The position numbers were made by a program, and so were the translations under genes. 64,000 nt of DNA, taken from a bacterium (GTDB taxonomy: Bacteria; Patescibacteriota; Minisyncoccia; Sungbacterales; HO2-52-23). Where the stretch lies: positions 602-64,601 of the forward strand of contig JAUYPE010000005.1 of NCBI GenBank assembly GCA_030697705.1. The letters are read 5' to 3'. This document shows, one piece after another, positions 17,683 to 50,482 of this stretch; the stretch's first letter is position 1; each line of letters begins with the position of its first letter. The notes under the pieces are model-generated. The model was not told where the DNA came from, did no database searches, and was given only the letters and a program-made list of their open reading frames with translations.

Positions 17683-17795
17683 TCCCTCTCTGTCATGCAG
17701 AGCGAAGCGACTGCCAGCAGGCGTCCCGTGAGGGAAGCATCCCGATACCTACAGGTATCTAACGGGATTCCTCGTTTCACTCGGAATGACGGGGG
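17683..17795. repeat. intergenic modular palindromic element, family 'GTCATTCCGAG...CGAGGAATCCCGT' (copy A; motif in minus orientation at 17763-17793 plus shared module GAGCGACTGCCAGYAGGCGTCCCGTGAGGGA)
   Basis: Sequence shared with copies at 21536-21610, 34786-34920, 50341-50482 and 31191-31312. Confidence 0.6.
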
Positions 17796-17801
17796 TTCTC
17801 T

Positions 17802-18239
17802 ATGAACAAATACATTATTCTCATCATCCTCGCCGTTGTTATTATAGGCGGAGGCATCGGCTACCGCGTCTATTTTTTGCCGGAAACATCGGTTCCCGTG
17901 ACGACAGGTAAGACCCGCGAGATTACGATTACCGCAAAAAGAGATGAGTGGCGTTTTGATCCTGAATTCGTGGAGGTTGACCGCGGCGACAAGGTAATCC
18001 TTCACATGGTGAATGAGGATGAGTACGACCACGGTATCGCGATTGACAAGTACGGCATCTCCCAGCGCATGCCGCCCAACGCCACCACGCATATTGAATT
18101 CGTCGCGACACAAGAAGGCGACTTTCCCCTTTACTGCTCGGTACCCTGCGGTGAGGGCGAGGTGGATGGAAAACATCGTGGGCATGTGGACATGGTGGGC
18201 AAGCTCCATGTCAGGAGTTTAATTTCCAACACACAATAA
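17802..18239 (+). CDS. cupredoxin-like (plastocyanin/azurin-fold) copper-binding protein, N-terminal TM anchor
   Basis: HMVNEDEYDHGIAI...FPLYCSVPCGEGEVDGKHRGHVDM gives an H...C...H...M ligand pattern. Confidence 0.65.
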   Translation: MNKYIILIILAVVIIGGGIGYRVYFLPETSVPVTTGKTREITITAKRDEWRFDPEFVEVDRGDKVILHMVNEDEYDHGIAIDKYGISQRMPPNATTHIEFVATQEGDFPLYCSVPCGEGEVDGKHRGHVDMVGKLHVRSLISNTQ

Positions 18240-18251
18240 AATCAAGGCGCC

Positions 18252-18551
18252 ATGATTTCATTTCTGAAACCGAATTTTACGAAGATCATATTGTCCCTTG
18301 CACTTTTCTTATTCATTCTGCCGGGTTTTGAGACGATTTGCGTCGATTTTGAATTTGGCGGATATTGTAGTCCTACAGTAGTTCCTCTCGGTGGCACTTT
18401 CTTTCTCATAAAAGTTGTGGGCCAAGAATTATCATATTTGATAGCACAGAAATGGTTTATGCGAGACATCCTTTATTTCCCCGTTGCCTCATATTTTTTC
18501 TCATGTGTAATTGTTTTTGTTGTGCAGAGGATAAGCACAAGAAAAAAATAA
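18252..18551 (+). CDS. small hydrophobic hypothetical protein (AT-rich ORF)
   Basis: 99-aa ORF with 2-3 TM segments; no SD evident. Confidence 0.3.
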   Translation: MISFLKPNFTKIILSLALFLFILPGFETICVDFEFGGYCSPTVVPLGGTFFLIKVVGQELSYLIAQKWFMRDILYFPVASYFFSCVIVFVVQRISTRKK

Positions 18552-18560
18552 TCTAAGTTT

Positions 18561-21059
18561 ATGACCAAACTCGTTCTTAAAGTAAAGGGGATGCACTGTG
18601 CCTCCTGCTCCACGCTTATTGATAAGCTGGTGGGGAGGGAGGCGGGTGTCGTCCAGATAAAAACAAACTACGGTGCGGAGAAAACCGCAATTGAGTTTGA
18701 TGAGACGAAAATTTCGCTTGAAAAAGTGGACGAGCTTTTGCATAAGCTCGGCTATGACTTGATCCGGCCGGATGAAAAGAGCTCCAGCGTGGAAGAGGAA
18801 GAAAAGAAAGAGGCGGCGCAGCTCGCCGCCGCGCGTCGTCGCGTCATCGCCAGTTTCGCGCTTGCCGCGCCCATTATCCTGTACTACATGCTCATCCACA
18901 TGTTCAATGTGTCGCATGTTCATGAGTTTTTCGATTTTCTCAATCAGAGACAGCCCATTTTTGTCGCCGGCGCTTCCGGTTTCGTCGCCTACGGCGCATT
19001 TTACACACAATATCTTTTCTGGATTATCGCCCAGCCCTTGCGGGTCATCGCAGGATTCTTTGTGGATGTTGCGAATCCGCCGTTTGAAATTGACCTCAAC
19101 TATATCTACTGGATTCTCTCCACGCCCATTCAATTCGTCATCGCCTGGCCCTTTTATCGCAACGCATTTACGGCGATCCGCGTCGGTTCGGCAAACATGG
19201 ATGTCCTCGTCGTTCTCGGGACCAGCGCGGCGTACTTTTACTCCATGGTGGGATTCCTGTTCTTTAATATAGACCATCCGTTTTGGGAGTCGTCAGCCGC
19301 GTTGTTGTCATTTATTCTTCTTGGTCGATATTTTGAACTCGTCTCTCGTGGGCGCGCCTCGGTGGCAATTAAAGAACTCTTGAAACTTGAAGCGAAAGAA
19401 GCGCATGTCATGCGTGACGGCGCGGAGATAACCGTACCTATTGATCAGATTAAAGCAGGGGAGACGGTTGTTGTGCGCCCCGGCGAGAAGATACCCGTTG
19501 ACGGCGTTATTCTTGAGGGCAAGACGCATTTGGATGAGAAGGTGGTTACCGGCGAGTCGTTTCCTGTTTCTAAAACCGTAGGCGATGAGGTCATCGGTGC
19601 GACGATTAATCAGGAAGGATTTTTGAAATTCAAAGCGACCAAGGTGGGGAAAGAGACGCTTCTATATCAAATTATTCAGATGGTAGAGGAGGCGCAGGCG
19701 ACGCGTGCGCCCATCCAGAATCTCGTAGACAAGATAAGCGAAATGTTCGTCCCCGCCGTTGTTATACTTTCCGTCATTACGTTCGTTATCTGGTTCTTCT
19801 TCCTTGCCTTTCCGTTTGAGGCATCGCTCCGTTTCATGATCGCGGTTCTCGTGATCTCCTGTCCGTGTGCCATGGGACTTGCCACGCCGACCGCGCTTAT
19901 TGTTGGCATTGGCCGAGCCGCAAAGTTCGGCATTATTTTGAAAGGCGGCGAGGCGCTGGAGAAGGCGTATAAAATCACCGCCATCGCGTTTGATAAAACA
20001 GGAACGCTCACCGAGGGTAAGCCCATCGTTACCGATTTCGTGCCTATCGGCAATTTCTTGCCGGAAAATCAAGTGCTTGCGCTCATCGCGGCGGCGGAAA
20101 AGGGTTCCGAGCATCCGCTCGCTCGTGCAATCATTGAGAAGGGGATGTCAGCGTCAAACAGCGCTCTTCCCGATGTGCAGAATTTTGAGGCCGTTGCGGG
20201 ACTCGGTATACAGGGCGCCGTTCTCGGGCATCAGATTGCTGTTGGCAACGCGGCATACATGCAGACGCTTGGCATTACCACCGACGAGCATGCCGCCGTT
20301 GTTAATAAACTTCAAAATGAGGCAAAAACGGTGGTGTATGCAGCGGCAAACCGCAAGCTCATTGCCCTCATCGCCATGCGTGATACGCTTAAGCCGTTTG
20401 CCCGCGAGGCAATCGTGGCACTCAAAAAAATCGGCAAGGAGATTATCATGATTACGGGAGACAATCCTAAAACAGCCGAAGCGATTAGTAAAGAAATAGG
20501 CATTGATCGCGTGCTCGCTCAAGTACTTCCCCAGCAAAAAGCCGAGGTCATCAAAAAACTCCAGAAAGAAGGCAAGGTCGTGGCAATGGTAGGGGATGGC
20601 ATCAACGACTCGCCCGCACTTGCGCAAGCGGATGTCGGCATCGCCGTCGGTTCGGGCACGGATGTGGCGGTGCAAACTGGTCAGATCGTCTTGGTCAAGG
20701 ACGACTTGCGGGATGTCGTGACCGCCATTCAACTCTCGGGCAAGACAATTACGAAGGTGTGGCAGAATCTCTTCTGGGCGTTTTTCTACAATGTCGTGGC
20801 AATTCCGATAGCGGGAGGGCTTCACTTCTTCATCACGCAAGCCGCTAGCGGCGCGCCCGCACACTGGGTCTTGAGTACGGTCGGGTTCTTTCAGAGTATC
20901 GGTCTCACCACGCTTGCCGCCATTTTCCTCAACTTCTCCCAAACCCCCCTGCGTCCCGAAATCGCCGGTTTCGCCATGGCATTCAGTTCCGTGTCGGTCG
21001 TCACCAACTCGCTGTTACTCCGAAGATACACGCCGCAAATGGAGAAAGGTAACCGGTAA
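18561..21059 (+). CDS. copA: copper-translocating P1B-type ATPase (CopA), N-terminal HMA domain
   Basis: GMHCASCS; CPC ([12 protein letters not shown]); DKTGTLT; [10 protein letters not shown]. Confidence 0.95.
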
Positions 21060-21068
21060 AATTATACG

Positions 21069-21305
21069 ATGAAAAGAAGATTACTACTTCTCATAACCAT
21101 AACGCTCATTATTTTTTTAGTTTTATGGTTACTTCTAGCCATACTGGGTGAAGCTTTGTGCATTACAAGCAATGAAGGTGATTACGCTTATTTTTCTCTT
21201 TACAGATTGGCTTATTGTTCATTACATGGACAGAAGTTCCTTCTCATAAGTTTGCTGTTGAGCAGTCTATTCTTTATTACAACCTTCACGATTCATAAAA
21301 AATAA
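21069..21305 (+). CDS. small hydrophobic hypothetical protein (AT-rich ORF)
   Basis: 78 aa, 2 TM; located between copA and copZ. Confidence 0.3.
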   Translation: MKRRLLLLITITLIIFLVLWLLLAILGEALCITSNEGDYAYFSLYRLAYCSLHGQKFLLISLLLSSLFFITTFTIHKK

Positions 21306-21308
21306 ACT

Positions 21309-21515
21309 ATGGAAAAAATAACGTTACATATAGAGGGAATGCACTGCGGGGCGTGTTCAATCGGGATTCAGATGCTAGTGTCGCAGATGGACGGAGCGGG
21401 TAAGGTGGAGGTGAGTTATGAGGGTAAAGAGGGAATATTTGAGTTTGATCCCGCCAAGACATCAAAAGAGGCGATTATTAAAGTCATCGCCGAGCTTGGG
21501 TATACGGCATCGTGA
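21309..21515 (+). CDS. copZ: copper chaperone CopZ (HMA domain)
   Basis: MEKITLHIEGMHCGACSIGIQ... Confidence 0.85.
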   Translation: MEKITLHIEGMHCGACSIGIQMLVSQMDGAGKVEVSYEGKEGIFEFDPAKTSKEAIIKVIAELGYTAS

Positions 21516-21535
21516 GAGATACTATCGCCACTCAC

Positions 21536-21610
21536 AGTCTGTCATTCCGAGCGTCCGCGAGGAATCCCGTAAGTTAACGAGATGTTTTGCCTGACGGATT
21601 AGCATGACGA
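21536..21610. repeat. intergenic element of the GTCATTCCGAG...CGAGGAATCCCGT family (copy B; motif in plus orientation at 21541-21570)
   Basis: GTCATTCCGAGCGTCCGCGAGGAATCCCGT. Confidence 0.55.
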
Positions 21611-21660
21611 CTAATAGCAAACCTTGCTTTACTGGCAGAGGAGTTGTATGATCTCCCCAT

Positions 21661-22218
21661 ATGAATCAACTCTACATCATCGGAGGTGTTGTCGTGCTCG
21701 CGATATTCTTTTTTATCGGTATTTATAACGGTCTCATCCGGCGGCGGAATCAAGCCGAGGAGGCGTGGTCGGACATTGAAGTCCAGCTCAAGCGCCGGTA
21801 CGATCTCATCCCCAATATCATAGAGACGGTGAAGGGATATGCGGGACACGAACGAGAAACACTGGATAGTGTCACCATGGCGCGCACGCAAGCGATGGGA
21901 GCCCAAACCGCTGATGAGCATGCCAAAGCGGAGAATGTCCTTGCCGGAACGCTCAAGACGCTTTTTGCCGTTTCGGAGAATTATCCCCAGCTCAAGGCGA
22001 ATGAGAATTTTCTGGAGCTTCAGCGTGAGCTCTCCGACACGGAAAACAAAATTCAGTCCGCGCGGCGCTTCTTCAATGGTGTCGTCCGCGATTACAATAT
22101 CGCTATCCAGTCCTTTCCCTCCAGCGTTGTTGCCGGTATGTTTGGCTTTACCCGCAAGGAACTTTTTGACTTGAGTGATACCGATGTGGCTCAACAGCCG
22201 GTAAAGGTTCAGTTTTGA
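21661..22218 (+). CDS. lemA: LemA-family membrane protein
   Basis: N-terminal TM; YNGLIRRRNQAEEAWSDIEVQLKRRYDLIPN...ENYPQLKANENF. Confidence 0.85.
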   Translation: MNQLYIIGGVVVLAIFFFIGIYNGLIRRRNQAEEAWSDIEVQLKRRYDLIPNIIETVKGYAGHERETLDSVTMARTQAMGAQTADEHAKAENVLAGTLKTLFAVSENYPQLKANENFLELQRELSDTENKIQSARRFFNGVVRDYNIAIQSFPSSVVAGMFGFTRKELFDLSDTDVAQQPVKVQF

Positions 22219-22221
22219 AGA

Positions 22222-22318
22222 AAGTGCTTAGTCCTTAGCCACTAGCGATGAGAGGAGAAAAGGAAAGAGAACTTCTCCTCTTGTCTCTGCTGATGGCTAA
22301 GCACTAACAACTAAGGAC
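22222..22318 (+). terminator. long imperfect hairpin (~40-bp arms) ending in TTTTT between lemA and htpX
   Basis: AGTGCTTAGTCCTTAGCCACTAGCGATGAGAGGAG pairs with CTCCTCTTGTCTCTGCTGATGGCTAAGCACTAACAACTAAGGACT, followed by a T-run. Confidence 0.5.
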
Positions 22319-22327
22319 TTTTTCGTA

Positions 22328-23245
22328 ATGACCCTCTACACGCAAAAATACGCGAATATCCGCAAGACGTGGCTTCTCATGACCATGTTTTTGGGCATGG
22401 TCATCGGAATTGGCTGGATCTTTAGTCGGGTCTATAACAACCCAAGCATTCTCGTATTTGCCGTGTTTTTGAGCATTGGAATCAATGTGGTGAGTTATTG
22501 GTTTTCGGACAAAATCGCGCTTGCTATTCACGGCGCCAAGCCGGTTGATCTCAAGCAACAGCCTGAAATCTATCGTATTCTTGAAAATCTTTCCATCGCC
22601 GCCGGTCTTCCTATGCCGAAGTTTTATATTATTCCTGACGCCGCACCCAACGCCTTCGCCACCGGTCGCAATCCCCAACATGCCGTAGTTGCCGTTACCG
22701 CGGGTCTGCTTGAGCGGCTTGACCGCTCGGAGTTGGAGGGAGTTCTTGCGCATGAGCTCTCACACATCGGCAATCGCGACATACTTCTTTCCACCGTCGC
22801 CGTTGTGCTTGCCGGACTCATCTCTATCGCCTCGGATATGTTTTTGCGTTCGCTCTGGTGGGGTGGGGGGCGGCGGAGTAATGATAGCGAGCGCGGTGGT
22901 GCCGGCATTCTCATTATTGTTGGTATTGCACTTTCTATTCTCGCACCGCTTTTTGCCACACTCATGCAACTTGCCATCTCGCGACGGCGTGAATTTTTAG
23001 CCGATTCCTCGGGCGCACTCCTTACGCGCTATCCTGAAGGTCTTGCTTCCGCACTCCGAAAAATCGCCGACTACCCCCAAAAAATGCGGAGCGCTACGAA
23101 TGCAACGGCACATCTTTTTTTTGAAAATCCTTTCGGTGCGGATCGTAAAAATTCGGGCAAGACCGCATGGCTCGTAAAATTATTCTCAACCCATCCCCCC
23201 GTTGAGGAACGCATTCGCGCGCTCCAGCAGGGGAGAGAGATATAA
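22328..23245 (+). CDS. htpX: zinc metalloprotease HtpX (M48)
   Basis: HELSHI motif; 4 TM; typical HtpX length. Confidence 0.9.
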   Translation: MTLYTQKYANIRKTWLLMTMFLGMVIGIGWIFSRVYNNPSILVFAVFLSIGINVVSYWFSDKIALAIHGAKPVDLKQQPEIYRILENLSIAAGLPMPKFYIIPDAAPNAFATGRNPQHAVVAVTAGLLERLDRSELEGVLAHELSHIGNRDILLSTVAVVLAGLISIASDMFLRSLWWGGGRRSNDSERGGAGILIIVGIALSILAPLFATLMQLAISRRREFLADSSGALLTRYPEGLASALRKIADYPQKMRSATNATAHLFFENPFGADRKNSGKTAWLVKLFSTHPPVEERIRALQQGREI

Positions 23246-23246
23246 T

Positions 23247-23265
23247 CAGGCATTTTTTTGCCTGG
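23247..23265 (+). terminator. hairpin CAGGCA-TTTTTTT-TGCCTG after htpX
   Basis: Direct reading. Confidence 0.5.
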
Positions 23266-23347
23266 CGAAACGGCAACTGTTTCCATAACAGATTTTTTTG
23301 GAAAAAGAACCTCTGTGGCACAGTCTGCGGGCCCCTTTTGAAGGGGC

Positions 23348-23376
23348 TTGACTTTTGATTGTCGTTCAGTTATAAT
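23348..23376 (+). promoter_or_regulatory. consensus sigma70 promoter TTGACT-17-TATAAT
   Basis: Perfect -10 and near-perfect -35 with 17-nt spacing, 65 nt upstream of the TauE/SafE gene. Confidence 0.5.
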
Positions 23377-23441
23377 AGACGGTAGAAAAGGAAAGTAATT
23401 TTACAAAACAATACGAACGACTAAACAAGCGGGAGGGACAC

Positions 23442-24311
23442 ATGACGGATCGTGCGGCCTCGCGTGATGGCCAAAATCTGATGGGTATAGGTTTTTTGAC
23501 CGGTGTGGTGAGTGCGTTGTTTGCCGCCGGCGGAGGACCGTTCTTCAGTATCGTCATGCAGTGGCGGTACAAACGTAGTATCAAAGAAATCAATGGCGCG
23601 GCACTCGCTCTGTTGGCAGGTGTTGCGTCAGTGAATCTTTCAGTCCGTTGGCTCATTGAGCCAAAGGACATCGCATTCGGCATCGGCATTGTGGCGCTGG
23701 TCTTCGGCCTTATTGGATCACAGTTTGGCAAATGGCTGGAAACGCGATGCAATACGCGCCAACTGGCAAAGGGGTTTGCGTTTCTTCTCATTATCGCAGG
23801 ATTGAGGATGATGAAGGTATGCATTTTTCCCGCGTTTCCAGTGCCGGAAATGCTTGTGTTTCCGATTGCAGGGGTAGTCGGATTCATCGCCGGAACAGCA
23901 TCCCAGCTCTTTGGGATGGGCGGAGGACTCGTCCTTGTTCCGGTCTTTGCGCTTTATGGGAGATTGTCGGCGAATGAGGCACTTGCCACTTCACTTTTTG
24001 CAAGCGTTCCCATGATGTTCTACGGCTCCAACCTTTATCATCGTGAGGGCAGAGTAAAAGGTGACGACATTCGTCAGCTTTTACTCCCGGGACTCGCAGG
24101 AGCGGCTGTCGGTGCATTTTTTTCGCGCCAGTTCATTCCCGATCAGATCCTCCAGACGGTGTTTGGAACCATTCTCATCGCATGCGCGATGAAGGCATTT
24201 GTTGAGTATTTACCGCAATTTAAAAAAGGGGTTGCCACGGCGGTAGTGGAATCATCACCCAAGCGGACGAAAGTACTGCCTAACCGGCCGCTTCGGCAAA
24301 ATTTTTTTTAG
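23442..24311 (+). CDS. TauE/SafE-family (sulfite exporter-like) membrane protein
   Basis: Two 4-TM halves with GGGxFxxP/VP motifs (AAGGGPFFSIVM; GMGGGLVLVPVFAL). Confidence 0.75.
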   Translation: MTDRAASRDGQNLMGIGFLTGVVSALFAAGGGPFFSIVMQWRYKRSIKEINGAALALLAGVASVNLSVRWLIEPKDIAFGIGIVALVFGLIGSQFGKWLETRCNTRQLAKGFAFLLIIAGLRMMKVCIFPAFPVPEMLVFPIAGVVGFIAGTASQLFGMGGGLVLVPVFALYGRLSANEALATSLFASVPMMFYGSNLYHREGRVKGDDIRQLLLPGLAGAAVGAFFSRQFIPDQILQTVFGTILIACAMKAFVEYLPQFKKGVATAVVESSPKRTKVLPNRPLRQNFF

Positions 24312-24330
24312 AAAGGAGATACAAATGAAA

Positions 24331-24365
24331 AGCACCCATCTGTCATTGCGACACGGGTGCTTTTT
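24331..24365 (+). terminator. hairpin AGCACCC-N16-GGGTGCT + TTTTT
   Basis: Direct reading. Lies inside a 15-codon SD-preceded mini-ORF (MKSTHLSLRHGCFFN). Confidence 0.55.
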
Positions 24366-24452
24366 CAATTAAAAAAATCGCACAAAGCCGCTCTGATCCT
24401 CCATGAGTGAGATACCTTGAGATTATACTAAAAATACGGTAGAGTATGACCC

Positions 24453-25334
24453 ATGCACTTCCTCATACGCATTCGCCAAAGCGTCTACGATCCCAAGTTT
24501 TATTTCACGCTCCGCTTCCGACCGCTCCGTACCGCCTTTTCATATTTCTACACCCTTCTCACGGGGCTTTCTTTTCTCGTCGCGCTCTCCGCACTTTTTA
24601 TTCTCGTCCCGCCTCTTACCTCTTTTATCCATCGCGCGCCCGGATATCTCAATGCTTTCTATCCCGACGGCCTCACGCTCACGATAAAAAACGGTACCAT
24701 CAGTACGAGCAAGCTGGAGTCGTATTCTTTTCCGCTTCCCAACGGGCTTAAAGAGAGCGCCGTCATTCCTCCGGATATTGACCGGCTTATTGCAATCAAT
24801 ACACGCGAGGATCGTCCCGTCGAGCATTTCCCTGAATACCGTACACTTCTCCTGGTTGGCAAAGACACACTTGCCTACCGCGATGAACGCGGCATCCAAA
24901 CGATACCGGCAAGCGAATTGCCCAACACGACCATCTCGCGCCAAAGTCTTGACCATGCTGTTGCGCGCCTTCAGTCATTTCTTCCTTTTCTCGCTCCCGC
25001 CGCCGTCCTTGCCGCGTTTCTCGCCTCATTCATACTCTTTAATTTCACTCTCCTCTTTCTTGCCGCCGGAGCGTTTGTTATTCTTATTTTTACAAAAATA
25101 AAACATGCACCGCTCACCTATCGTCAGAGCTATGCTATTGCCCTCCACGGCGCGACGCTTCCGCTTATCATGAGCGTTCTCCTGTGGTGCTTTACGTTCA
25201 TTCTCCTCCCGCCGATTTTTTTCACCCTCCTCTTTCTTGTCAGTATATTTTTTAATATGCAGTACGACATCAAAAAACCCGCCACCGCTCCCGCCACCGC
25301 AGAAAAATCAACCGAAACACCACCGAAAGAGTAA
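24453..25334 (+). CDS. DUF1189-family membrane protein
   Basis: 293 aa. N-terminal TM pair, central soluble region, C-terminal TM cluster. The DUF1189 family assignment is from memory. Confidence 0.55.
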   Translation: MHFLIRIRQSVYDPKFYFTLRFRPLRTAFSYFYTLLTGLSFLVALSALFILVPPLTSFIHRAPGYLNAFYPDGLTLTIKNGTISTSKLESYSFPLPNGLKESAVIPPDIDRLIAINTREDRPVEHFPEYRTLLLVGKDTLAYRDERGIQTIPASELPNTTISRQSLDHAVARLQSFLPFLAPAAVLAAFLASFILFNFTLLFLAAGAFVILIFTKIKHAPLTYRQSYAIALHGATLPLIMSVLLWCFTFILLPPIFFTLLFLVSIFFNMQYDIKKPATAPATAEKSTETPPKE

Positions 25335-25458
25335 TACTTGCGTTAAGGAGAGGTTACATAGGTGGTCTCGTGCGCACGATTGTTCCCGATTTGTCCAAGA
25401 TTCCGAGTTTTTAAGAACGAAGAAATCTTGGCTCACAAATCACAATCCCGTACAAACC

Positions 25459-25545
25459 GGAGGCGTCGCATAGTGGCCTAGTGCGCTCGCTTGGAAAGCG
25501 AGTAGACCTTAACCGGTCTCGGAGGTTCGAATCCTCCCGCCTCCG
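25459..25545 (+). tRNA. tRNA-Ser (anticodon GGA), 87 nt, long variable arm, discriminator G, no encoded CCA
   Basis: Acceptor GGAGGCG/CGCCTCC; anticodon stem CUCGC/GCGAG with loop UUGGAAA; variable arm AGACC-UUAACC-GGUCU; T-arm GGAGG-UUCGAAU-CCUCC. Confidence 0.9.
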
Positions 25546-25612
25546 GTTTGTACGGGAGAAAGCGTGTCTTAGGTTTTAGATACCTGTCAATACACTCATT
25601 TTATGTAGAATT

Positions 25613-25852: not shown

Positions 25853-25893
25853 ACCCGACCCATATATCCCAAATTGACGATTCAATAGAAAAC

Positions 25894-31190: not shown

Positions 31191-31312
31191 TAATCATTGC
31201 GAGCGAGGCGATAAGGAAGCGATTCGGTACGCGTAGTTAAAAGCTATAGGTTGCTTCATCCCGCCACGCTACCGCTCGCGGCTAAGGGATCACTCGCTTC
31301 TCGCAATGATTA
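31191..31312. repeat. ~120-bp imperfect palindrome in the rpoB leader with terminal arms AATCATTGCGAGCGAGGCGATAAGG / CCCTTATCACTCGCTTCTCGCAATGATT; diverged member of the GTCATTCCGAG family
   Basis: Arm sequence ATCATTGCGAG-AAGCGAGTGATCCC vs family half-site GTCATTCCGAGTGAAGCGAGGAATCCC. Confidence 0.55.
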
Positions 31313-34761: not shown

Positions 34762-34785
34762 CCAACCCTGGGCTGGTCATCCCCG

Positions 34786-34920
34786 CGAAGGGGGATATCC
34801 AGTCATTCTGTATATATTGAACATTAGCGTGATTCCTCCCTCACGGGACGCCTACTGGCAGTCGCTCTGCTCGCCCGGACGACCCAGTCGGACGGGCTCG
34901 GAATGACGGCATGAGGAGGG
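34786..34920. repeat. intergenic element of the GTCATTCCGAG family between rpoB and rpoC (copy C; shares module GAGCGACTGCCAGTAGGCGTCCCGTGAGGGA with copy A)
   Basis: Degenerate plus-orientation half-site at 34802-34850 and minus-orientation half-site at 34894-34909. Confidence 0.6.
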
Positions 34921-34950
34921 GCAACTGCCTAAGTCCTACTCAAAATACCT

Positions 34951-42604: not shown

Positions 42605-42658
42605 CGATTGGTGAAGAAAAACATTTTTTAATCAATCCATAGTGTTACTTCATTTCTT

Positions 42659-43675
42659 ATGGCAAAAGAAAAAATAAAAGACGGACGACTGGACAAGGTT
42701 AAAATGCTTGATGCGGCGATCAAGCAAATTCAAGAAAAGTACGGCGAGGGTGCAATTATGCGGCTCGGTGAGCACGACCGTGTGGATATTGATACCATCT
42801 CCACGGGTTCGTTTGCGTTAGACCACGCGCTCGGCGTTGGCGGTTTGCCACGGGGGCGCATCGTCGAACTCTTCGGACCGGAGTCAAGCGGCAAGACGAC
42901 TCTGGCGCTTCATGTCGTGCGCGAGGCACAAAAAAAAGGCGGTCTTGCGGCGTATGTAGATGCGGAGCACGCGATGGATCCCGAATACGCCAAGCATATC
43001 GGCGTGAATATTGACGAACTGCTTATCTCGCAGCCCGATACAGGCGAACAGGCGCTTGAAATCGTTGAGTCGCTGGTGCGTTCTCACGCCGTGGATGTCA
43101 TTGTTGTTGACTCCGTCGCCGCGCTCGTTCCCCGCGCGGAGATAGAAGGAGAGATGGGGCAACAGCATGTGGGACTTCAGGCGCGGCTGATGTCGCACGC
43201 GCTCCGCAAGCTCACCGCCATTGTCGCGCACTCCAATGTGATTATTATTTTCATCAACCAGCTCCGCATGCAAATTGGCATGATGTGGGGCAATCCCGAG
43301 ACGACGCCGGGAGGCAAGGCGCTGAAGTTCTACGCCTCGGTGCGCATAGACATCCGCCGCGCCGCACAAATTAAAAAAGGCGAGGAGATTATCGGCAATC
43401 GCGTAAAGGCAAAAATAGTCAAAAACAAAGTCGCCGCGCCGTTCCGTACCGCCGAGTTTGATATTTTTTACAATGTCGGCATTTCGTTTGAGGCGGAGGT
43501 TATCAATGCGGGCATCACCCACGGGCTTATTAAAAAAGCGGGTGCAAGTTTGAGTTATGATACGCTTCGCCTTGGTGTGGGCTTTGACGCCGCCAAGACC
43601 TACCTCAAAGAAAACCCGAAAGTATGCGAAGAGATCATGGAAAAGATACGAGAAAAGATGAAAGAGAGCTCATAA
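42659..43675 (+). CDS. recA: recombinase RecA
   Basis: GPESSGKTT Walker A; canonical RecA sequence throughout. Confidence 0.97.
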
Positions 43676-43819
43676 CGCTACTTTTTAAGACACACCCGCC
43701 GCACTCCTGCGGTGCGACGGGCTAAGGGTCGGAAGAAGTTTTGCACAGAGCGCAAGCCGAGCAACTTCTTCCTCCCATTGTCTTAAAAATCAGCGTTATT
43801 TTTTGGGAATATAAAAAGG

Positions 43820-43863
43820 AAAATAAAATGACTTTCCCTGCTTGTGGAAAGTCATTTTATTTT
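43820..43863. terminator. perfect 18-bp-stem hairpin AAAATAAAATGACTTTCC-N8-GGAAAGTCATTTTATTTT (bidirectional terminator between recA and rpsR)
   Basis: Direct reading. Confidence 0.7.
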
Positions 43864-43879
43864 GAGAGGTAATAATTTT

Positions 43880-44092
43880 CTATCGTGTGGTGAACGGTAC
43901 GAGGGCGAGAGAGCGGGCGCGTTTGATAGCGGTGGCAAGTTCGCGTTGGTGGGAGGCGCAGAGACCCGATTTCTTACGCGGGTAGATCTTGCCGCTCGCG
44001 CTCAAAAACTTACGGAGATTCTCCACATCTTTATAATTAGCGCCACTGCGGCTCGTCGTACAAAAAAAGCACTGTTTTTTATTCTCTTGCAT
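43880..44092 (-). CDS. rpsR: 30S ribosomal protein S18
   Basis: [53 protein letters not shown]. Confidence 0.9.
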
Positions 44093-44098
44093 ATTATG

Positions 44099-44259
44099 AG
44101 ACCCACTGCTTAATAACCTTTTCTACTCCGACCGTGCTTTTTCGGCTGCAAACAACTCATCGCTCGTCGATGAATACCTTGCATTCACCTCCTCGCGTTT
44201 CATTGTTTTCGCCCGAAAAAGCATGGTCTCGCTACGAAAAATTATTAAGCAGTGGGTCT
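44099..44259. repeat. 161-nt nested-hairpin element with perfect 18-bp terminal inverted repeats (AGACCCACTGCTTAATAA / TTATTAAGCAGTGGGTCT), wedged between ssb and rpsR; paralogous to 53065-53223
   Basis: Perfect outer IR plus an inner IR (CGACCGTGCTTTTTCGG / CCGAAAAAGCATGGTCTCG). Internal sequence blocks are shared with the dnaB-upstream copy. Confidence 0.6.
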
Positions 44260-44260
44260 A

Positions 44261-44788
44261 TTAAAAAGGTATATCTTTGACATCTATTTCTTCTCCGTCT
44301 TCCGGAAGCTCAATAATGGGCGGTTCTTCCTGTCCACCGCCGTCAGCGCGTGCCGACGGTTGATTCTGATTGTTCCGGTCGCGCGATGGCGTGCTGTTAT
44401 ATCGCTCTCCGCGCATCAGCGATGCTCCTTGCTCTTGTCCTCCGCCCATTATCGCTCCCGCCGGTCGCGGACCGAATTGAAATTCATCCACGACAATTTC
44501 AGTGCGGTAGTGTTTGACACCCTGTTGATCCTGCCATGAGCGCGTTTGCAGTCGCCCCTCAATAAACATACTGCTGCCTTTTTTCATGTACTGGGCGATG
44601 ACCTCGGCCTGTCGTCCCCATGCGACCAAATTATGGAATTCCACCTGGTCGCGCTTCTGCCCGCTCGCGTCGTTGAAGGTGCGATTGGTCGCAATCCCGA
44701 ACGTGCACACCGGCTGACCGCCGGGCGTTTGGCGAATTTCCGGGTCGCGTGTAAAATTGCCGAAAAGGAATACTTTGTTGAGGTTCAT
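44261..44788 (-). CDS. ssb: single-stranded DNA-binding protein
   Basis: OB fold (MNLNKVFLFGNFTRDPEIRQTPGG...), Gly/Gln-rich linker, C-terminal DIPF. Confidence 0.9.
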   Translation of the reverse strand: MNLNKVFLFGNFTRDPEIRQTPGGQPVCTFGIATNRTFNDASGQKRDQVEFHNLVAWGRQAEVIAQYMKKGSSMFIEGRLQTRSWQDQQGVKHYRTEIVVDEFQFGPRPAGAIMGGGQEQGASLMRGERYNSTPSRDRNNQNQPSARADGGGQEEPPIIELPEDGEEIDVKDIPF

Positions 44789-44873
44789 GGGGTTAGTTTG
44801 TAGTAAGTAGTTGGTAGGGGATAGAGGATGGTATCTTCGCTTTTCCTAAAACCTATCCACTAAAATCTACTCA

Positions 44874-45344
44874 CTATTTTCCTAATATCTCTTCCAATTT
44901 TTTATCCAACGCCTCTAGATCCAACTTGTCATCCGTCTTATCCGCCTCGCGGAGTATGACCAATGTTTGCTGTTGGGTGCGCGGCGGCATGGCGGGGCGA
45001 GCGATGGCGGCGTCAAAGGGCTTCATCTGGCGCAGCTTTTGCTTGTGCTCGTCCTGTTGGATAACCATAAACCGCAAAAGCTCCGGTATGGTTTGGAGTC
45101 GCTTTTCCAAACTCGCTATCTGCATCGGTTCGCACCGGAACGCTGTCCAGCCAAAATAAGCGTTCCGCTCTTTTTTGACCCGATATGCTAAGCGATACCG
45201 CGAGGGCTGTTCCGCATGCTGGATGAGCCCTTTGACCTCCTCAATCAAGTTATTGAGCTTGTGGGTATGCCCCAGTGCCTCCTCCTCGGGTATGGAGGGG
45301 GAGAGTAGGTAGGCAAGCTCATACGACCGTGGTTCTGATTCCAT
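44874..45344 (-). CDS. rpsF: 30S ribosomal protein S6 with C-terminal extension
   Basis: YELAYLLSPSIPEEE...YRLAYRVKKERNAYF...RFMVI. Confidence 0.8.
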   Translation of the reverse strand: MESEPRSYELAYLLSPSIPEEEALGHTHKLNNLIEEVKGLIQHAEQPSRYRLAYRVKKERNAYFGWTAFRCEPMQIASLEKRLQTIPELLRFMVIQQDEHKQKLRQMKPFDAAIARPAMPPRTQQQTLVILREADKTDDKLDLEALDKKLEEILGK

Positions 45345-45508
45345 AGTCCATTGATACTACAAAAAGGAACGGCTGTCCACAAGGTTGACAGAACCGTAAT
45401 TTCTTTTTATACTCTTACTTGAGTCGTTGTTATGTTATTCCGAATAATAGAGGTGCCCTCATGTTGCCATCGGATGAATTATAATTCGGTGGCATTTTTT
45501 TGTTTTTC

Positions 45509-46609
45509 TTAAACTCTAAACTCAACGACATCGCCGTCCTGGACGATATATTCTTTACCCTCTATGCGGAGTAGGCCGAGTTCGCGGGCACGGGCGTATG
45601 AGCCGGCTTCCAGTAGTTTTTTATAATGGATAACTTCGGCGCGGATAAATTTTTCCTCAAAGTCGGAGTGAATGGTGCGTCCCGCTTGCGGTGCGGTGGA
45701 GTCGGCACGAACCGTCCACGCCCGTGTCTCGTCCTCGCCCGTCGTCAAAAAAGTAATGAGTTCGAGTGTGTCGTATGCCGTGCGAATGAGCCGGTCGAGT
45801 CCGCTTTTTTCAAGACCGATACTCGCAAGATATTCTCGCCGTTCATCGTCGCCGAGCTCCGAAAGCTCCGCTTCTATTTTTGCGGAGACGGCAATCCATG
45901 GAGCCAAACCAATTTTTTGCTGAAGTTTTTCATCGGGTTGCCAATGGTGCTGGATTTGCCGTTCACTCACATTAAAGATATAGAGGATGGGTTTTGCCGT
46001 GAGGAGATTGAGCTCGCGATCAATGGTCGTCATCGTCTCGCGTTGGGACATTGAAAAATGTTCCAGGGCGGCGCGGGCGAGTAATCCTCTTTCCAATTCT
46101 TTTTGTAAAAACTCCAGCATTACGGCTATTTCTCCAGCTCCTTTCTTCTTCGCACGGGCATCGGTATGAGCCGTTGCCAGACGCCGCGTTATCGTCTCCA
46201 GATCTTTTAGGATAAGTTCATACTCGATAACTTCAATGTCTGAAACGGGGTCGGGTGTTTCGGAGACATGGATAATATCACCGTCCTCAAAAATGCGTAC
46301 GACCTCGGCGATAGCGTCCGTTTCGCGAATGTGCGTAAGAAATTTATTGCCAAGTCCCTCACCCTCCGCCGCACCCTTGACGAGTCCGGCGATATCCACG
46401 AACTCAATGACCGCCGGAACGACTTTCTGTGAATGCGACAGTGCGGTAAGTTGAGCAAGCCGCTCGTCGGGAACGGGAACGACACCCACATTGGGCTCAA
46501 TAGTGCAGAACGGATAATTTTGGATATCAACTTTCTGGCGCGTGAGGGCGCTGAAAAGGGTTGACTTTCCCACATTCGGCAAGCCAACTATGCCTATCTT
46601 TAAAGACAT
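45509..46609 (-). CDS. ychF: ribosome-binding ATPase YchF
   Basis: [23 protein letters not shown]; TGS C-terminal domain ([13 protein letters not shown]). Confidence 0.95.
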
Positions 46610-46742
46610 ATCGCGCCATGATATAACAAAAAAACACGAAGATCAATCGGTAGGCTGTTGACAAAAAAACGGGTAAGGATTACAAGTATAAGTATGTGTG
46701 TTGTCCGGAAAAAACGCGTGCGGGCAACACAAGAGGAGAGAG

Positions 46743-47531
46743 ATGATGAAGTGGATTGTTTCCGTAAGTATGGTTCTTTTTTTAGCGCTGTGGATCGCGT
46801 CTCCTGTGACTGCGGGGAGTGCCGTCACGGGATTGCCATCCCATGCGCAGATCACGGCGGCGCTTGAAAAGGCGTGTGCCAAGGGGGTTAATAACGGATC
46901 CATTTTCTCGCCGTGCGAGATGTGGGTCGGCGTGGTGCGTCTTGACGGGACAGTCGCCGTTGTCGCCAAGAACGGCCATGATCCCTGGAAGGGCAGTCGG
47001 GTCATCGCCATGCAGAAAGCGAATACCGGGCGTCTTTTCAGTAAAGATCGGGGATTAGCGCTTTCAACGGCGAACTTGTTCAGTGCCGTGCAGCCGGGAG
47101 GGAGTTTGTTCGGGTTGCAATTCAGCAACCCCATTGACACGCACACGGCGTATCGGGGACCTGCCACGCAGTATGGCACGCTAACCGACCCGGCAGTTGG
47201 TCGGCGCGTTGGAGGTGTAAATGTGTTCGGCGGAGGTCTGGCGTTGTATGATGCCAAGGGACGCATCATCGGCGGATTGGGTGTGAGTGGCGACAGTCCA
47301 TGCGCCGATCACAACATTGCGTGGCGTATCCGTCACGCGCTCGGTCTTGATCATGTCCCTGCGGGTGTTAACAAGGCCGGATACGGTGGAGCAGTGGCGC
47401 CGGTCACAGGTGATGACAACATCATCTATGGACCGGGAGGTTTTTCCCACGCTGAATGCGGATTCGGCGAAAAGACCGTTACCGATCTGCCCGCCGTCTC
47501 TCCAGTTCCGACCGCCACAGCTATGAAGTGA
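46743..47531 (+). CDS. secreted GlcG/HbpS-like (DUF336) heme-binding-fold protein
   Basis: Signal peptide; GGLGVSG motif characteristic of DUF336. Confidence 0.65.
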   Translation: MMKWIVSVSMVLFLALWIASPVTAGSAVTGLPSHAQITAALEKACAKGVNNGSIFSPCEMWVGVVRLDGTVAVVAKNGHDPWKGSRVIAMQKANTGRLFSKDRGLALSTANLFSAVQPGGSLFGLQFSNPIDTHTAYRGPATQYGTLTDPAVGRRVGGVNVFGGGLALYDAKGRIIGGLGVSGDSPCADHNIAWRIRHALGLDHVPAGVNKAGYGGAVAPVTGDDNIIYGPGGFSHAECGFGEKTVTDLPAVSPVPTATAMK

Positions 47532-47644
47532 AAAAACAACTACCCGCACGCGTTTTAACCAGACCACTTTGCATTCGTGCGGAGTGGTCGGTTCTTTTTA
47601 TAGGATTGTATCTGCAGGTGTTATAGTGATAAACTAGAAAAACT

Positions 47645-48451
47645 ATGAAAATTACCAATCTTAAAAAACTCAAACCAAAAGAGGCGATTGTCTTTGATCT
47701 TGACGGTACGGTTGCCCCGACCAAGGCGCCTATAGACGCGGAGATGGCGACGCTGATCACGCGCCTGCTTGCCGTGCAGAAGGTCGTCATTATCGGTGGC
47801 GGCAAATACGGTATTTTCAAGACCCAGTTCCTTCAGCAGTTAAAAGCTCCAAAACCTCTTCTGAAGAATCTTTTTCTCTTTCCCGCCACGGCAACCTCAT
47901 TTTATAAATATGACGCTGGCTGGAAAAATATCTACGCGCTCCATCTGACCACGGCAGAAAAAGAAAAAATCAAAACAGCGTTTCGCGATGTATTTGAAAA
48001 AACCGGTTATCACCATCCTCGAAAAGTATACGGCAAGGTAATTGAAGACCGCGGCACGCAGATTACGTTTTCGGCGCTGGGTCAGGATGTCGTCGCGGTG
48101 CTTGGGGCGAAACGGGGAGTTCCGTTGAAAGAAAAATGGTTGCATGAAAACCGCGCGGTCAAAATGAACATGGCAAGACACCTCGCCAAGCTTCTGCCGG
48201 ACTTGGAGGTGCACGCCGCAGGATTCACCTCCATCGATATAACCAAAAAAGGCATTGATAAGGCGTACGGTCTGGAACAAGTTAAAAAGCATCTGGGAGT
48301 GGAAATAAGAAGTATGCTTTTTGTGGGAGACGCAATCTTTCCCGGCGGCAACGACTACGCGGTCGTCAAAACGGGAGTGGATTATGTTCCCGTAAGCGGA
48401 CCAGCTCAAACGAAAACGATCATTCGTGCGCTCCTTGCCAAGGGGGAATAA
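47645..48451 (+). CDS. HAD-IIB hydrolase, phosphomannomutase (eukaryotic-PMM)-like
   Basis: FDLDGTV motif I; GGNDY motif IV; PMM-like cap. Confidence 0.7.
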   Translation: MKITNLKKLKPKEAIVFDLDGTVAPTKAPIDAEMATLITRLLAVQKVVIIGGGKYGIFKTQFLQQLKAPKPLLKNLFLFPATATSFYKYDAGWKNIYALHLTTAEKEKIKTAFRDVFEKTGYHHPRKVYGKVIEDRGTQITFSALGQDVVAVLGAKRGVPLKEKWLHENRAVKMNMARHLAKLLPDLEVHAAGFTSIDITKKGIDKAYGLEQVKKHLGVEIRSMLFVGDAIFPGGNDYAVVKTGVDYVPVSGPAQTKTIIRALLAKGE

Positions 48452-48813
48452 TGAAGATGAGCGAATGAGGTTATATTTGACTTTATTCACCTCTATGTTA
48501 TATTGGTCATCGTCGTGAGTATTGGTTGTTTTTGCAAGAAAGAAAAGAGGGGGTGCTCGTAATGGATACAATTCATACGACGAATAGTGTTGAAGGTGTA
48601 GAAATAGAACGCAAGTGGCGGCTGTTTCGCTTACCGCCGCGTGAAATTCTGGGAAAAGGGTATATGCGGTGCCAGGGGTACTTAATCGTGGAGTATCAAG
48701 GACCGCTTAAGCCGCTTATGACCATTTAAGTATAAGGGTTCTCAAGCATATTTTGCGGAGGAGCCCTTTTTATTTTGAGAATATTCGCGTGTGGTGTATG
48801 ATGCTTCGTATCC

Positions 48814-49899
48814 ATGAGTGTAGAATTTTTCATAATTGCCGTGGTGGTTGTAGCTGGATTCGTCGGCATTTTTTTCGTATTGGTGAAACGGACGGGGAGG
48901 CAGGAGGTCATACCGCAAAACAATGACACTCTTTTACTTTTGCAGAACCAGATAAATGAAATCGCTCGGGCGCTGGACGGGCGGATGGCGGAATCATCGC
49001 GTCTCATGCAAACACAATTTGGAACGATGCAGACCGCCATGCAGTCGCAGGTGGGAGCGAGCGCGCGAATCGTGCAGGAGGTGACGGAACGGCTGACCAA
49101 ATTAGACGAGACGAACCGGCAGGTTGTTGGTTTTGCCGATCAGCTCAAAAATTTGCAGGATATTTTGAAAAACCCCAAACAGCGAGGGATTTTAGGGGAA
49201 TATTTTTTGGAGACCTTGCTCAAAAATGTCATGCCGCCCGGGAGTTTTCAGATGCAATATGCCTTCCCCGACGGGCTCGTTGCGGACGCGGTTGTCTTCG
49301 TCAAAGAGAAAAAAATCTGCATTGATTCAAAATTTTCATTGGAAAATTATAATCGTATTCTAGTCGCCGGCGACGCTGTGGAGCGCGAGCGGTTGGAGCG
49401 GGTTTTTCGTGCTGACCTCAAAGACCGCATTGACGAAACGGCGAAATATGTAAAGCCGGATCAGGGGACGATGGATTTTGCATTTATGTTTATTCCCGCC
49501 GAGGCGATTTACTACGACCTTCTCGTCAATCAAGTCGGCGCGGTGAAGGTCAATACCCAGGACTTAATTCAGTACGCCTTTAAAGACAAGCATGTCATTA
49601 TCGTTTCGCCGACATCTTTTTTGGCATATTTGCAGACCGTTTTGCAGGGATTGCGGGCGTTGCAAATAGAGGAGTCAGCGAAAGAAATTCGCAAGAATGT
49701 GGAACAGCTCACGCGCCACATGAAAAGCTATGAGGAGTATTTTGGAAAAATTGGTACGCATCTTGGTACGACGGTTAATATGTACAACAACGCACGCAAG
49801 GAGTTCGGCAAAATTGACAAAGACATGCTCCGTATCACGGGGGAGGGAGTGGGCATGGAGCTTGAGGCTATTGAGGGTCCTGCCAACGAGGAGGGGTAG
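48814..49899 (+). CDS. rmuC: DNA recombination protein RmuC
   Basis: N-terminal TM; coiled-coil; KNPKQRGILGEYFLE; RmuC C-terminal domain. Confidence 0.85.
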   Translation: MSVEFFIIAVVVVAGFVGIFFVLVKRTGRQEVIPQNNDTLLLLQNQINEIARALDGRMAESSRLMQTQFGTMQTAMQSQVGASARIVQEVTERLTKLDETNRQVVGFADQLKNLQDILKNPKQRGILGEYFLETLLKNVMPPGSFQMQYAFPDGLVADAVVFVKEKKICIDSKFSLENYNRILVAGDAVERERLERVFRADLKDRIDETAKYVKPDQGTMDFAFMFIPAEAIYYDLLVNQVGAVKVNTQDLIQYAFKDKHVIIVSPTSFLAYLQTVLQGLRALQIEESAKEIRKNVEQLTRHMKSYEEYFGKIGTHLGTTVNMYNNARKEFGKIDKDMLRITGEGVGMELEAIEGPANEEG

Positions 49900-49955
49900 T
49901 TCCTAAAAAAAGCCATATTGCAAAAGAAAACAGTCCATGCTACCATCGAGAAACT

Positions 49956-50273
49956 ATGATACATCTCGCAGTTATTCATACGGGCGGGAAGCAATATGTT
50001 GTCTCGCCGGGGGACAAACTAAAGATAGCAAAGCTTGAGGGCGCCGAAGGGTCGGCGGTCATTTTTTCCGATGTTTTTTTGACGAGTAATGGGGAGAAAA
50101 CGGCCATCGGCACGCCAACCATTTTGGATGCACAAGTTGAGGCGACCATTCTCAAGCAAGCCCGTACGCGGAAAATGATCATCTCTAAATATCACAACAA
50201 AACGCGCTACCGCAAGCGCCAAGGACACCGCCAGCACTACACCGAGGTTGAGATTGGGAAGATAGTTGTATAA
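49956..50273 (+). CDS. rplU: 50S ribosomal protein L21 (no rpmA/L27 following)
   Basis: MIHLAVIHTGGKQYVVSPGDKLKIAKLEG... Confidence 0.9.
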   Translation: MIHLAVIHTGGKQYVVSPGDKLKIAKLEGAEGSAVIFSDVFLTSNGEKTAIGTPTILDAQVEATILKQARTRKMIISKYHNKTRYRKRQGHRQHYTEVEIGKIVV

Positions 50274-50277
50274 AAGG

Positions 50278-50303
50278 AGCCCACCTGTGGAGAGGTGGGC
50301 TCT
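50278..50303 (+). terminator. hairpin GAGCCCACCT-GTGGAG-AGGTGGGCTC after rplU
   Basis: 10-bp stem; weak U-tail. Confidence 0.5.
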
Positions 50304-50340
50304 TGGTGGAAGGCGAGCTTGGTGTTAGCAGGTAATATAG

Positions 50341-50482
50341 TTAGGACTTCCGCATTTGATTGTCATCCAGAGTCCGCCCAGGGCGGACGAAGGATCCCGT
50401 TAGATTTCAGTATACTGAATATTCACGGGATTCCTCGCTTCACTCGGAATGACGGATCAAGAGGCAAACGCGTAAGTCCTAA
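50341..50482. repeat. 142-bp palindromic element of the GTCATTCCGAG family (copy D): 13-bp terminal IRs TTAGGACTTCCGC/GCGTAAGTCCTAA, two opposed half-sites around central palindrome TTCAGTATACTGAA
   Basis: Right half rc = GTCATTCCGAGTGAAGCGAGGAATCCCGT. Left half = GTCATCCAGAGT..CGAAGGATCCCGT with an embedded CCGCCCAGGGCGG palindrome. Confidence 0.65.

Follow-up and report, generated by a model that had tools for sequence, protein, structure and literature searches.

Probable Ssn-type hairpin repeats in a 64-kb stretch of a Sungbacteria genome

The oriented Neisseria repeat NTS (CGTCATTCCCGCGMAVGCGGGAATCYRG) has been generalised as the Ssn-related motif (SRM), a hairpin found beside ssnA, a 94-residue single-domain GIY-YIG gene (Chenal et al. 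2025, Nat Commun 16:2388, PMC11893778). At least one SRM lies near 71% of the homologues of this gene, and 42% have one on both sides. SsnA of N. meningitidis binds the hairpin solely in single-stranded DNA (ssDNA) and solely on the strand with the tag, and makes its cut a few nucleotides upstream of this tag; for cutting, the GTC positions are important, and for binding the C that follows the stem is the most critical position (PMC11893778). It is the only Ssn that has been tried on RNA, and it neither bound nor cut RNA or double-stranded DNA. Of the four Ssn proteins that have been purified, three come from Neisseria species and one from Wolbachia pipientis; each cleaves ssDNA close to the hairpin that belongs to it. 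In N. meningitidis, SsnA limits transformation with DNA that carries NTS. The same paper pointed out the insertion sequence-like NTS-ssnA-NTS architecture and the parallel to repetitive extragenic palindromic (REP) sequences with their REP-associated tyrosine transposases (RAYT), and left the role in other bacteria open. Here we compare with these systems a family of palindromic elements in 64,000 nucleotides of a Sungbacterales genome (GCA_030697705.1, contig JAUYPE010000005.1, positions 602 to 64,601; hereafter the window).

A second relevant group is the CGTC-tagged REPs (Di Nocera, De Gregorio and Rocco 2013, BMC Genomics 14:522, PMC3733652), which have an unpaired CGTC, TGTC or CCTC tag and a perfectly paired stem of 8-9 bp that opens with A and T; the loop measures 4-5 nt, the 3-nt tail resembles CCA, and most copies are dimers. 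They were found in five phyla, mainly in Alphaproteobacteria, include Neisseria dRS3 and Rickettsia RPE-4/RPE-6, and have copies inside uvrA, uvrB, recBCD and polA. According to that study the repeats "lack a dedicated transposase", no associated enzyme was found and no RAYT was flanked by CGTC repeats; bulged members may have escaped its search.

The window repeats share several features with these groups. As in NTS and SRM, their half-sites have a directional (H)GTC tag, an AT-first hairpin and a C after the stem; as in CGTC REPs, they have a CGTC or TGTC tag, AT at the stem start, a 3-nt tail, a mostly dimeric arrangement and intragenic copies in uvrA. Their anatomy, wide distribution, association with Ssn-family genes, stem covariation and turnover between relatives are observed in the data, and it is very probable that the window elements are Ssn-related hairpin motifs of the SRM, NTS-like or CGTC-tagged REP kind.

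REP doublets forming hairpins (REPIN) and their RAYT proteins, built on GTAG REPs, are reportedly the subject of work by Bertels and Rainey in 2011, Nunvar in 2010 and Ton-Hoang in 2012. The window repeats resemble them as short hairpins in inverted pairs that are spread through intergenic space, with a recognising protein whose gene is bracketed by hairpins and which acts on ssDNA. They differ in the fold of that protein (GIY-YIG versus HUH/Y1) and in the tag (YGTC versus GTAG). REPIN-RAYT systems are described as mostly vertically inherited (10.1101/2022.05.22.493013); compared with that description, near-identical half-sites common to several phyla appear to set the present repeats apart.

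Half-sites and dimers in the window

The window holds six inverted-dimer elements and one solo half-site (Table 1). A first-pass annotation, made by a model from the sequence, had listed five intergenic copies, all of which we recovered close to where it had placed them, and its description of a modular, palindromic, dispersed repeat family holds. The sixth dimer, in frame within uvrA, and the solo NTS-like half-site, directly 5' of copy C, were absent from its list. Each half-site consists of an unpaired directional tag, YGTC, a hairpin with an AT-first stem, and a C directly after the stem. In the window the stem reads ATTCC, followed by a tandem G.A mismatch, GC and a GNA-type or longer tip. 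All four intact half-sites have a CGTC or TGTC tag, as do most of the decayed arms, and all four contain ATTCC...GGAAT followed by C. The half-sites are paired in inverted orientation with the tags outward, forming gene-less, REPIN-like dimers of 65-140 nt that start with GTCAT and finish with ATGAC. The exception is the diverged dimer in the rpoB leader, in which the tag is ATC instead of GTC in both arms and the ends are ATCAT/ATGAT.

Unlike the stems of CGTC REPs, the nine-position stem of the window half-sites is broken by G.A pairs; the loop is 3 nt or far longer (tips range from 3 to >40 nt), and in place of CCA the tail reads CCC or CTC. Unlike NTS and the reported SRMs, the main window subtype, hereafter GAG-type, has a 5-bp outer stem, the tandem G.A mismatch and a GNA or longer tip, and its host belongs to the candidate phyla radiation (CPR), a group absent from the main text of PMC11893778. 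The named close relatives of the window UvrA and RpoB proteins are mostly from Sungbacteria or Parcubacteria.

The half-site core GTCATTCCGAG has exactly four exact matches in the window (17780-, 21541+, 34897- and 50443-). CGAGGAATCCCGT has three, and with up to two mismatches it has eight matches against 2.1 expected, a number reached in 0 of 100 shuffles. A looser scan for TCAT, a 5-bp stem and its complement was non-discriminating (29 matches versus 22.5 expected) and was replaced by a covariance model trained on 88 half-sites from other genomes and run on the window with filters off. This model clearly recovered the four intact half-sites, whose partner arms score weakly; beyond the matches in Table 1 it gave no strong-scoring copy in the window, and the model, 28 nt long, misses the rpoB-leader dimer.

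Stem conservation was read from the 88 distinct 28-mers. G2, T3 and C4 are invariant, as are the pairs A5/T25 and T6/A24 and the C at column 26, but the collecting search itself required GTCAT and a complementary stem, and the C was likewise required by selection. The inner pair, which was free of selection, is G-C in 59, A-T in 27 and unpaired in 1 of the 88 sequences, and the two positions outside it, positions 6-7 of the stem, form tandem G.A/A.G in 75/88 and canonical pairs in 13/88. A survey of 257 distinct GTCATnnnGAR sequences from loci anchored on Ssn-family genes, in which complementarity was not demanded, revealed that the stem changes between loci in a complementary manner (ATTGC/GCAAT, ATTCT/AGAAT, ATCCT/AGGAT, ATCCC/GGGAT, ATTCC/GGAAT, ATGCT/AGCAT and rarer types). 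The ATTGC/GCAAT type, which bears on the rpoB-leader dimer, is the commonest stem beside Ssn genes elsewhere.

To place the half-site outside this lineage, one genome per species was scanned with the pattern GTCATTCCGAG-N4-12-CGAGGAATCCC, in which 22 specified bases had to match exactly. The exact half-site occurs at at least 120 loci from more than ten phyla, among them Acidobacteriota, Verrucomicrobiota, Chloroflexota, Bacillota, Bacteroidota (including cultured Hymenobacter), Gemmatimonadota, Proteobacteria, Binatota and Planctomycetota as well as the CPR groups Uhrbacteria and Gracilibacteria, and in most cases C-GNA-G(T) forms its variable middle. The half-site is not confined to one lineage.

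The dimers share further modules. The right half-sites of A and D share 97% identity over 31 nt. The modules that the first-pass annotation had seen in common between A and C (48 nt, in inverted orientation, 85% complementary) and between A and D (CCCGTTAGAT with a small palindrome) were both recovered by a repeat finder. In D, which it described as a palindrome with 13-bp terminal inverted repeats, the outer repeat is perfect over 9 bp and matches at 12 of 14 positions, and is not a clean 13 bp. The extra right-hand module of C, ending TAAGTCCTA, is also present in D.

Table 1. Repeat copies in the window, and stutter arrays beside ssn genes in other loci. Folding was computed as ssDNA and z-scores are relative to shuffles; covariance-model matches are given as coordinates, strand, score and E-value.
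Feature	Coordinates	Location	Architecture	Covariance-model match	Fold
Dimer in uvrA	3476..3540	within uvrA	GTCATTCCGAACGCAGTGAGGAATCCCG-ACAACATA-CGGGATCCCTCACTCATACCCAGGATGAC; left half-site 3476-3503 intact, right arm 3513-3540 degenerate	3475-3502, +, 41.4 bits, E=1.7e-8; right arm 11.8 bits	z=-3.5
Dimer A	17692..17790	between DsbD-like membrane protein gene and cupredoxin gene	right half-site intact (minus strand); left arm with enlarged tip module GAGCGACTGCCAGCAGGCGTCCCGTGAGGGA	17764-17791, -, 35.8 bits, E=4.9e-7	-21.1 kcal/mol, z=-4.0
Dimer B	21541..21608	between HMA (copZ-like) gene and lemA	left half-site GTCATTCCGAGCGTCCGCGAGGAATCCCG intact, right arm decayed	21540-21568, +, 37.4 bits, E=1.8e-7; right arm 8.7 bits	no better than shuffles, z=+0.5
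rpoB-leader dimer, diverged	31193..31310	upstream of rpoB, neighbour ABC transporter	both arms ATCATTGCGAG..., 60-nt spacer		z=-1.8
Solo NTS-like half-site	34776..34802	start of rpoB-rpoC spacer	GTCATCCCCGCGAAGGGGGATATCCAG, plus strand		
Dimer C	34802..34938	rpoB-rpoC spacer	core 34802-34907 plus right-hand module to 34938; left arm remnant (GTCATTCTG...), right arm GTCATTCCGAG on minus strand, long tip		z=-2.2
Dimer D	50341..50482	downstream of rplU; neighbours L21 and small ORF beside recR	core 50362-50453 within outer arms TTAGGACTT...AAGTCCTAA; left half-site with GC-hairpin tip, right half-site intact	left arm 50361-50398, +, 17.2 bits, E=0.033; right half-site 50427-50454, -, 39.4 bits, E=5.4e-8	-30.1 kcal/mol, z=-5.2
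Stutter arrays	2402-2470 and 2816-2975	L197			
Stutter array	2781-2845	L188			
Stutter array	2146-2400	L174			
Stutter array	1854-2450	L169			
Stutter array	9500-9990	L207			

Three further observations concern individual copies or relatives of the half-site. About 30 nt past the ATGAC end are common to C (34908-34938) and D (50454-50482), reading GG.A..A.GAGG..CAA..GC.TAAGTCCTA, and in D this flank pairs with 50341-50361 as an outer inverted repeat. The shared flank implies either that the mobile unit of this subfamily is longer than the GTCAT...ATGAC core or that a second palindromic element surrounds that core. In a separate assembly of this organism from short reads, a contig (Logan SRR13727529_38120, locus L121) breaks inside copy A, at the equivalent of window position 17763, as expected of a dispersed repeat. 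On the Dehalococcoidia chromosome OZ244885.1 (loci L002, L014 and L066), exact half-sites form regular arrays with a spacing of 75-80 nt, and 329-nt units with one inverted pair each also occur; these arrays have the look of clusters of bacterial interspersed mosaic elements (BIME).

A GIY-YIG partner gene and turnover among relatives

An all-against-all comparison of open reading frames (ORFs) of at least 70 residues in the 120 motif-anchored loci listed gave a single repeat-linked family, a small GIY-YIG protein of about 95 residues present at four loci (L114, L109, L118 and L068). Its ORF lies between or beside half-sites and matches Pfam PF01541, and in L114 the gene occupies exactly the dimer loop, in the order left half-site, ORF, right half-site. 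Inverted hairpins also surround a single-domain GIY-YIG gene in L133, L135, L185, L192 and others. The association was also approached from the protein side with a profile of three partner proteins, which led to 549 confirmed metagenome relatives; the best 80 loci were kept, 65 of them with enough flanking sequence to count. Correctly oriented hairpins, forward upstream and reverse downstream, were found on both sides of the gene in 34/65 loci, on one side in 24/65 and on neither in 7/65, and in the Ssn-anchored loci hairpins number 2.87 per kb up to about 300 nt from the gene versus 0.39 per kb elsewhere.

The partner family is large (8,753 clusters at 50% identity, E<=1e-10). Database sources name its members only "GIY-YIG nuclease family protein", there is no NCBIfam equivalog for the partner protein, and the nearest solved structures are UPF0213 proteins of unknown function. 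A tblastn search with a Thermodesulfovibrio member matched two N. gonorrhoeae chromosomes, in which the ORF is flanked by CCGTCATTCCCGCGCAGGCGGGAATCTAG and has 94 residues, as many as SsnA is stated to have (PMC11893778). The L114 and L133 proteins, whose genes are flanked by GAG-type half-sites, are 44% (E=2e-21) and 43% (E=4e-25) identical to this SsnA orthologue. As in the NTS/Ssn system, the same type of hairpin brackets single-domain GIY-YIG genes of about 94 residues in inverted orientation in these other genomes. It is by analogy with the published biochemistry that Ssn proteins would act on such hairpins in ssDNA, and the first-pass suggestion of a protein-binding site is supported to the extent that the hairpin type would correspond to an Ssn site. 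The two chromosomes, NZ_CP119140.1 and NZ_CP119142.1, are 2.17-Mb entries filed as plasmids in PLSDB.

We had also considered the partner as an undescribed "missing transposase" of the repeats, and dropped this given PMC11893778. Since the half-sites match CGTC REPs and the partner is homologous to SsnA, the family is one that has already been described; a literature search by sequence string returned only unrelated primer matches. The first-pass annotation had not recognised it, and what it took for a new family fits both the CGTC-tagged REPs (PMC3733652) and the hairpins flanking Ssn genes (PMC11893778), that is, a characterised REP/BIME-type element.

Beside many ssn genes we further observed tandem "stutter" arrays with a period of 20-23 nt, in which each unit is the tag and 5' arm alone, for example GTCATCCTGAGcgaagcactaat in up to seven repeats, with one complete hairpin closing the array (Table 1). 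The main text of PMC11893778 does not mention such arrays, which may be the footprint of a repeat-copying process.

The published SRM search string, HGTCWYN(0-2)YYVSBRHN(0-5)WNVSBRGN(0-2)RNCYNB (PMC11893778), passes the NTS consensus and fails on all GAG-type and ATTGC-type half-sites tested. It matches in 3/80 Ssn-anchored loci, and in Sungbacteria relatives it matched five NTS-like copies in L202 and one in L205. TGTCATTCCCGCGCAGGCGGGAATCCAG is an example of the true NTS-like copies in these relatives, and one of these copies, GTCATCCCCGCGAAGGCGGGGATCCAG in L202, matches the string and is a near-identical, intact counterpart of the solo half-site of the window. Judged by their sequences, both types, the classical NTS and the G.A-mismatch hairpin, are present in Sungbacteria.

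The dimer within uvrA shows how a copy can be accommodated in a coding region. The uvrA ORF (1459-4557) is uninterrupted across the dimer, indicating that the element is translated. Geobacillus UvrA (2r6f) aligns on either side of the insertion, and the alignment leaves about 22 residues unmatched at the insert, which lies within ITRHSERSEESRQHTGSLTHTQDDQQKK in the linker that precedes the second ATPase domain. This in-frame insertion resembles that of Rickettsia palindromic elements, which likewise add 20-30 residues in a flexible linker and leave the frame intact; the lineage is different, and the likeness drawn here is in the mode of insertion. An alignment of 60 Sungbacteria UvrA proteins revealed two such linker hot spots, at which the relatives have differing repeat-derived peptides or none (RH[SPA]ERSE[EAG]S..., VIPAKAGIQ..., KHSNILKNVGM..., ...PRND).

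The closest relative, L202, is 85% identical at the protein level and syntenic with window positions 1-12587 at 82-86% nucleotide identity. The same hairpin subtype is at site 2 of uvrA in the window and at site 1 in L202 (10781-10845); the two elements are 83% identical overall, and their left halves are identical over 28 nt. The second uvrA hot spot of L202 carries a different family member, GTCATCCCCGCGAAGGCGGGGATCCAG...GGCGGGAATGAC. The rpoB-rpoC spacer is 189 nt in the window and contains the solo half-site and copy C; it is 18 nt and empty in L204, 88 nt with another family member in L205, and 88 nt with an unrelated palindrome in L206. No target-site duplication flanks any of the window copies or the copies in L202 and L205. 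At the two uvrA linkers and in the rpoB-rpoC spacer, these comparisons show that insertions turn over between Sungbacteria relatives, as expected of mobile DNA.

Another repeat family, built on the heptamer AATGCTG, is also found at uvrA. Its palindromic block at 2249-2336 lies in frame at the first linker hot spot and adds about 27 residues (DNAKLQMLNAEKERGKHVASAFSIQHSAL), and a second block (873-907) lies in the spacer upstream of the gene; L202 has neither block.

Weighing of the explanations

With the window elements read as Ssn-related hairpin motifs, the copies would derive, as non-autonomous elements without a gene, from units that carry ssn, and would have spread through a single-strand process that depends on Ssn and leaves no target duplication. 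They would persist where insertion is tolerated, in intergenic spacers and flexible protein linkers, and in this genome they are most likely passive passengers; the intact half-sites may still be ssDNA cleavage sites if an ssn gene lies elsewhere in the genome. The first-pass reading as MITEs (miniature transposable elements with inverted repeats) agrees with this in that the copies behave as non-autonomous, MITE- or REPIN-like DNA; it fails for a classical DDE MITE, given the lack of a target-site duplication. The preference for highly expressed genes that it proposed is not demonstrated, the neighbours being copper-resistance genes, lemA, rpoB/rpoC, rplU, recR-side genes and uvrA. Copies are found in intergenic spacers and linkers because insertion is tolerated there.

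Several points weigh against this assignment. The SRM string gives 0 matches in the window, where 0.23 would be expected by chance; the string is a search tool and not a definition, so its failure marks a subtype without excluding membership. The Ssn proteins studied biochemically come from three Neisseria species and W. pipientis, and none is paired with a GAG-type hairpin. A profile search of the 64-kb window, of L121 and of L202-L206 (relatives amounting to about 89 kb from four Sungbacteria) gave no ssn gene. A filled and an empty site could not be cleanly paired by conserved flanks, so the missing target duplication is only suggestive, and mobility is deduced from polymorphism among genomes with 78-85% protein identity, with no observed event.

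A host-serving role is the first alternative to consider: Ssn would cut incoming or exposed ssDNA and thereby modulate recombination or transformation near the flanked genes, and the copies would be selected rather than passive relics. It would fit the limit that SsnA sets on transformation by NTS-bearing DNA in N. meningitidis, as well as the retention, in the four intact window half-sites, of the GTC tag and the post-stem C that are critical for cleavage and binding (PMC11893778). However, half of the arms have decayed, the ssn gene was not found in the window or the relatives searched, and the presence and position of copies vary between close relatives, a better fit to turnover than to conserved function. 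We therefore regard selected copies as unlikely; host-level restriction of ssDNA as in Neisseria is possible by analogy, without specific support here.

An alternative based on RNA would make the elements terminators, attenuators, stabilisers of mRNA or a new structured RNA near highly expressed genes; of these, the first-pass annotation had raised structured RNAs and a terminator or attenuator module. Three copies indeed fold well (z from -3.5 to -5.2), most copies lie between co-directional genes, and many REPs have been argued to be transcribed (Di Nocera et al., PMC3733652). Nevertheless, Rfam gave no match on the elements (window at gathering threshold and at E<=5, 12 autonomous loci at E<=1), the uvrA copy is translated, another copy sits between rpoB and rpoC, and rplU has its own GC hairpin and then a T-rich stretch upstream of copy D. 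The unpaired tag and the strand-specific G.A/GNA features are, moreover, those of an ssDNA site for a nuclease that is inert on RNA, and an RNA role appears very improbable.

Least probable of all is that these are ordinary REPs or REPINs mobilised by a RAYT (an HUH tyrosine transposase) or MITEs of a DDE insertion sequence, which the REPIN-like inverted-dimer architecture and a DDE transposase gene in L205 might suggest, but against which stand the YGTC rather than GTAG tag, the GIY-YIG protein as the only repeat-linked family among ORFs of at least 70 residues in the 120 motif-anchored loci, with hairpin flanks confirmed from the protein side, the lack of target-site duplications and the finding that no RAYT is flanked by CGTC repeats (PMC3733652).

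Returning to the Ssn-related motifs, what is new here is modest: a CPR host, a hairpin subtype outside the SRM string, and two UvrA linker hot spots with turnover. A wider proposal can be put forward only tentatively, and we lean against it at present: the GAG-type hairpin (5-bp AT-first stem, tandem G.A, GNA or expandable tip) could be a separate and very large class of Ssn-site specificity, largely missed by the SRM string, that moves horizontally across more than ten phyla including CPR, remains mobile in the form of REPIN-like dimers and has repeatedly colonised UvrA linkers in frame; in Sungbacteria, such repeats might then last even where no ssn gene is resident. Our data suggest that the published SRM pattern under-detects a major class of hairpins beside ssn genes in environmental genomes and that the Ssn/SRM system extends to CPR bacteria. 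Repeat turnover between relatives bears on the open question of how CGTC repeats spread, and GAG-type pairs of hairpin and nuclease are natural candidates for new ssDNA-cutting specificities. For annotation, such elements are best labelled as Ssn-type (CGTC-REP/SRM) hairpins and not as new RNAs or MITEs, and the 22-residue insert of UvrA as repeat-derived.

Other repeats in the window

Two palindromes of about 170 nt, at 53061-53227 and 44094-44264, have 82-nt arms that are 72-73% complementary and share internal motifs (...TAACCTTTTCTAC...CGAAA...). A similar core, GAAGCATATAC(A/T)GCGTATATGTTGAAA, is present upstream of rpoB in L206, and these palindromes are probably another MITE-like family. 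The tRNA-Ser(GGA) gene (25458-25546) lies within a perfect 20-nt inverted repeat (25446-25465 and 25538-25557), which lengthens the acceptor stem by about 12 bp into the leader and trailer and gives an unusual precursor helix. A perfect tandem array at 14064-14150, just upstream of an ORF starting at 14151, has the 26-nt unit TGGGGATAACTTAACTATCCCCCTTG and comprises three 35-nt copies at 26-nt spacing, each unit with the palindrome GGGGATA...TATCCCC.

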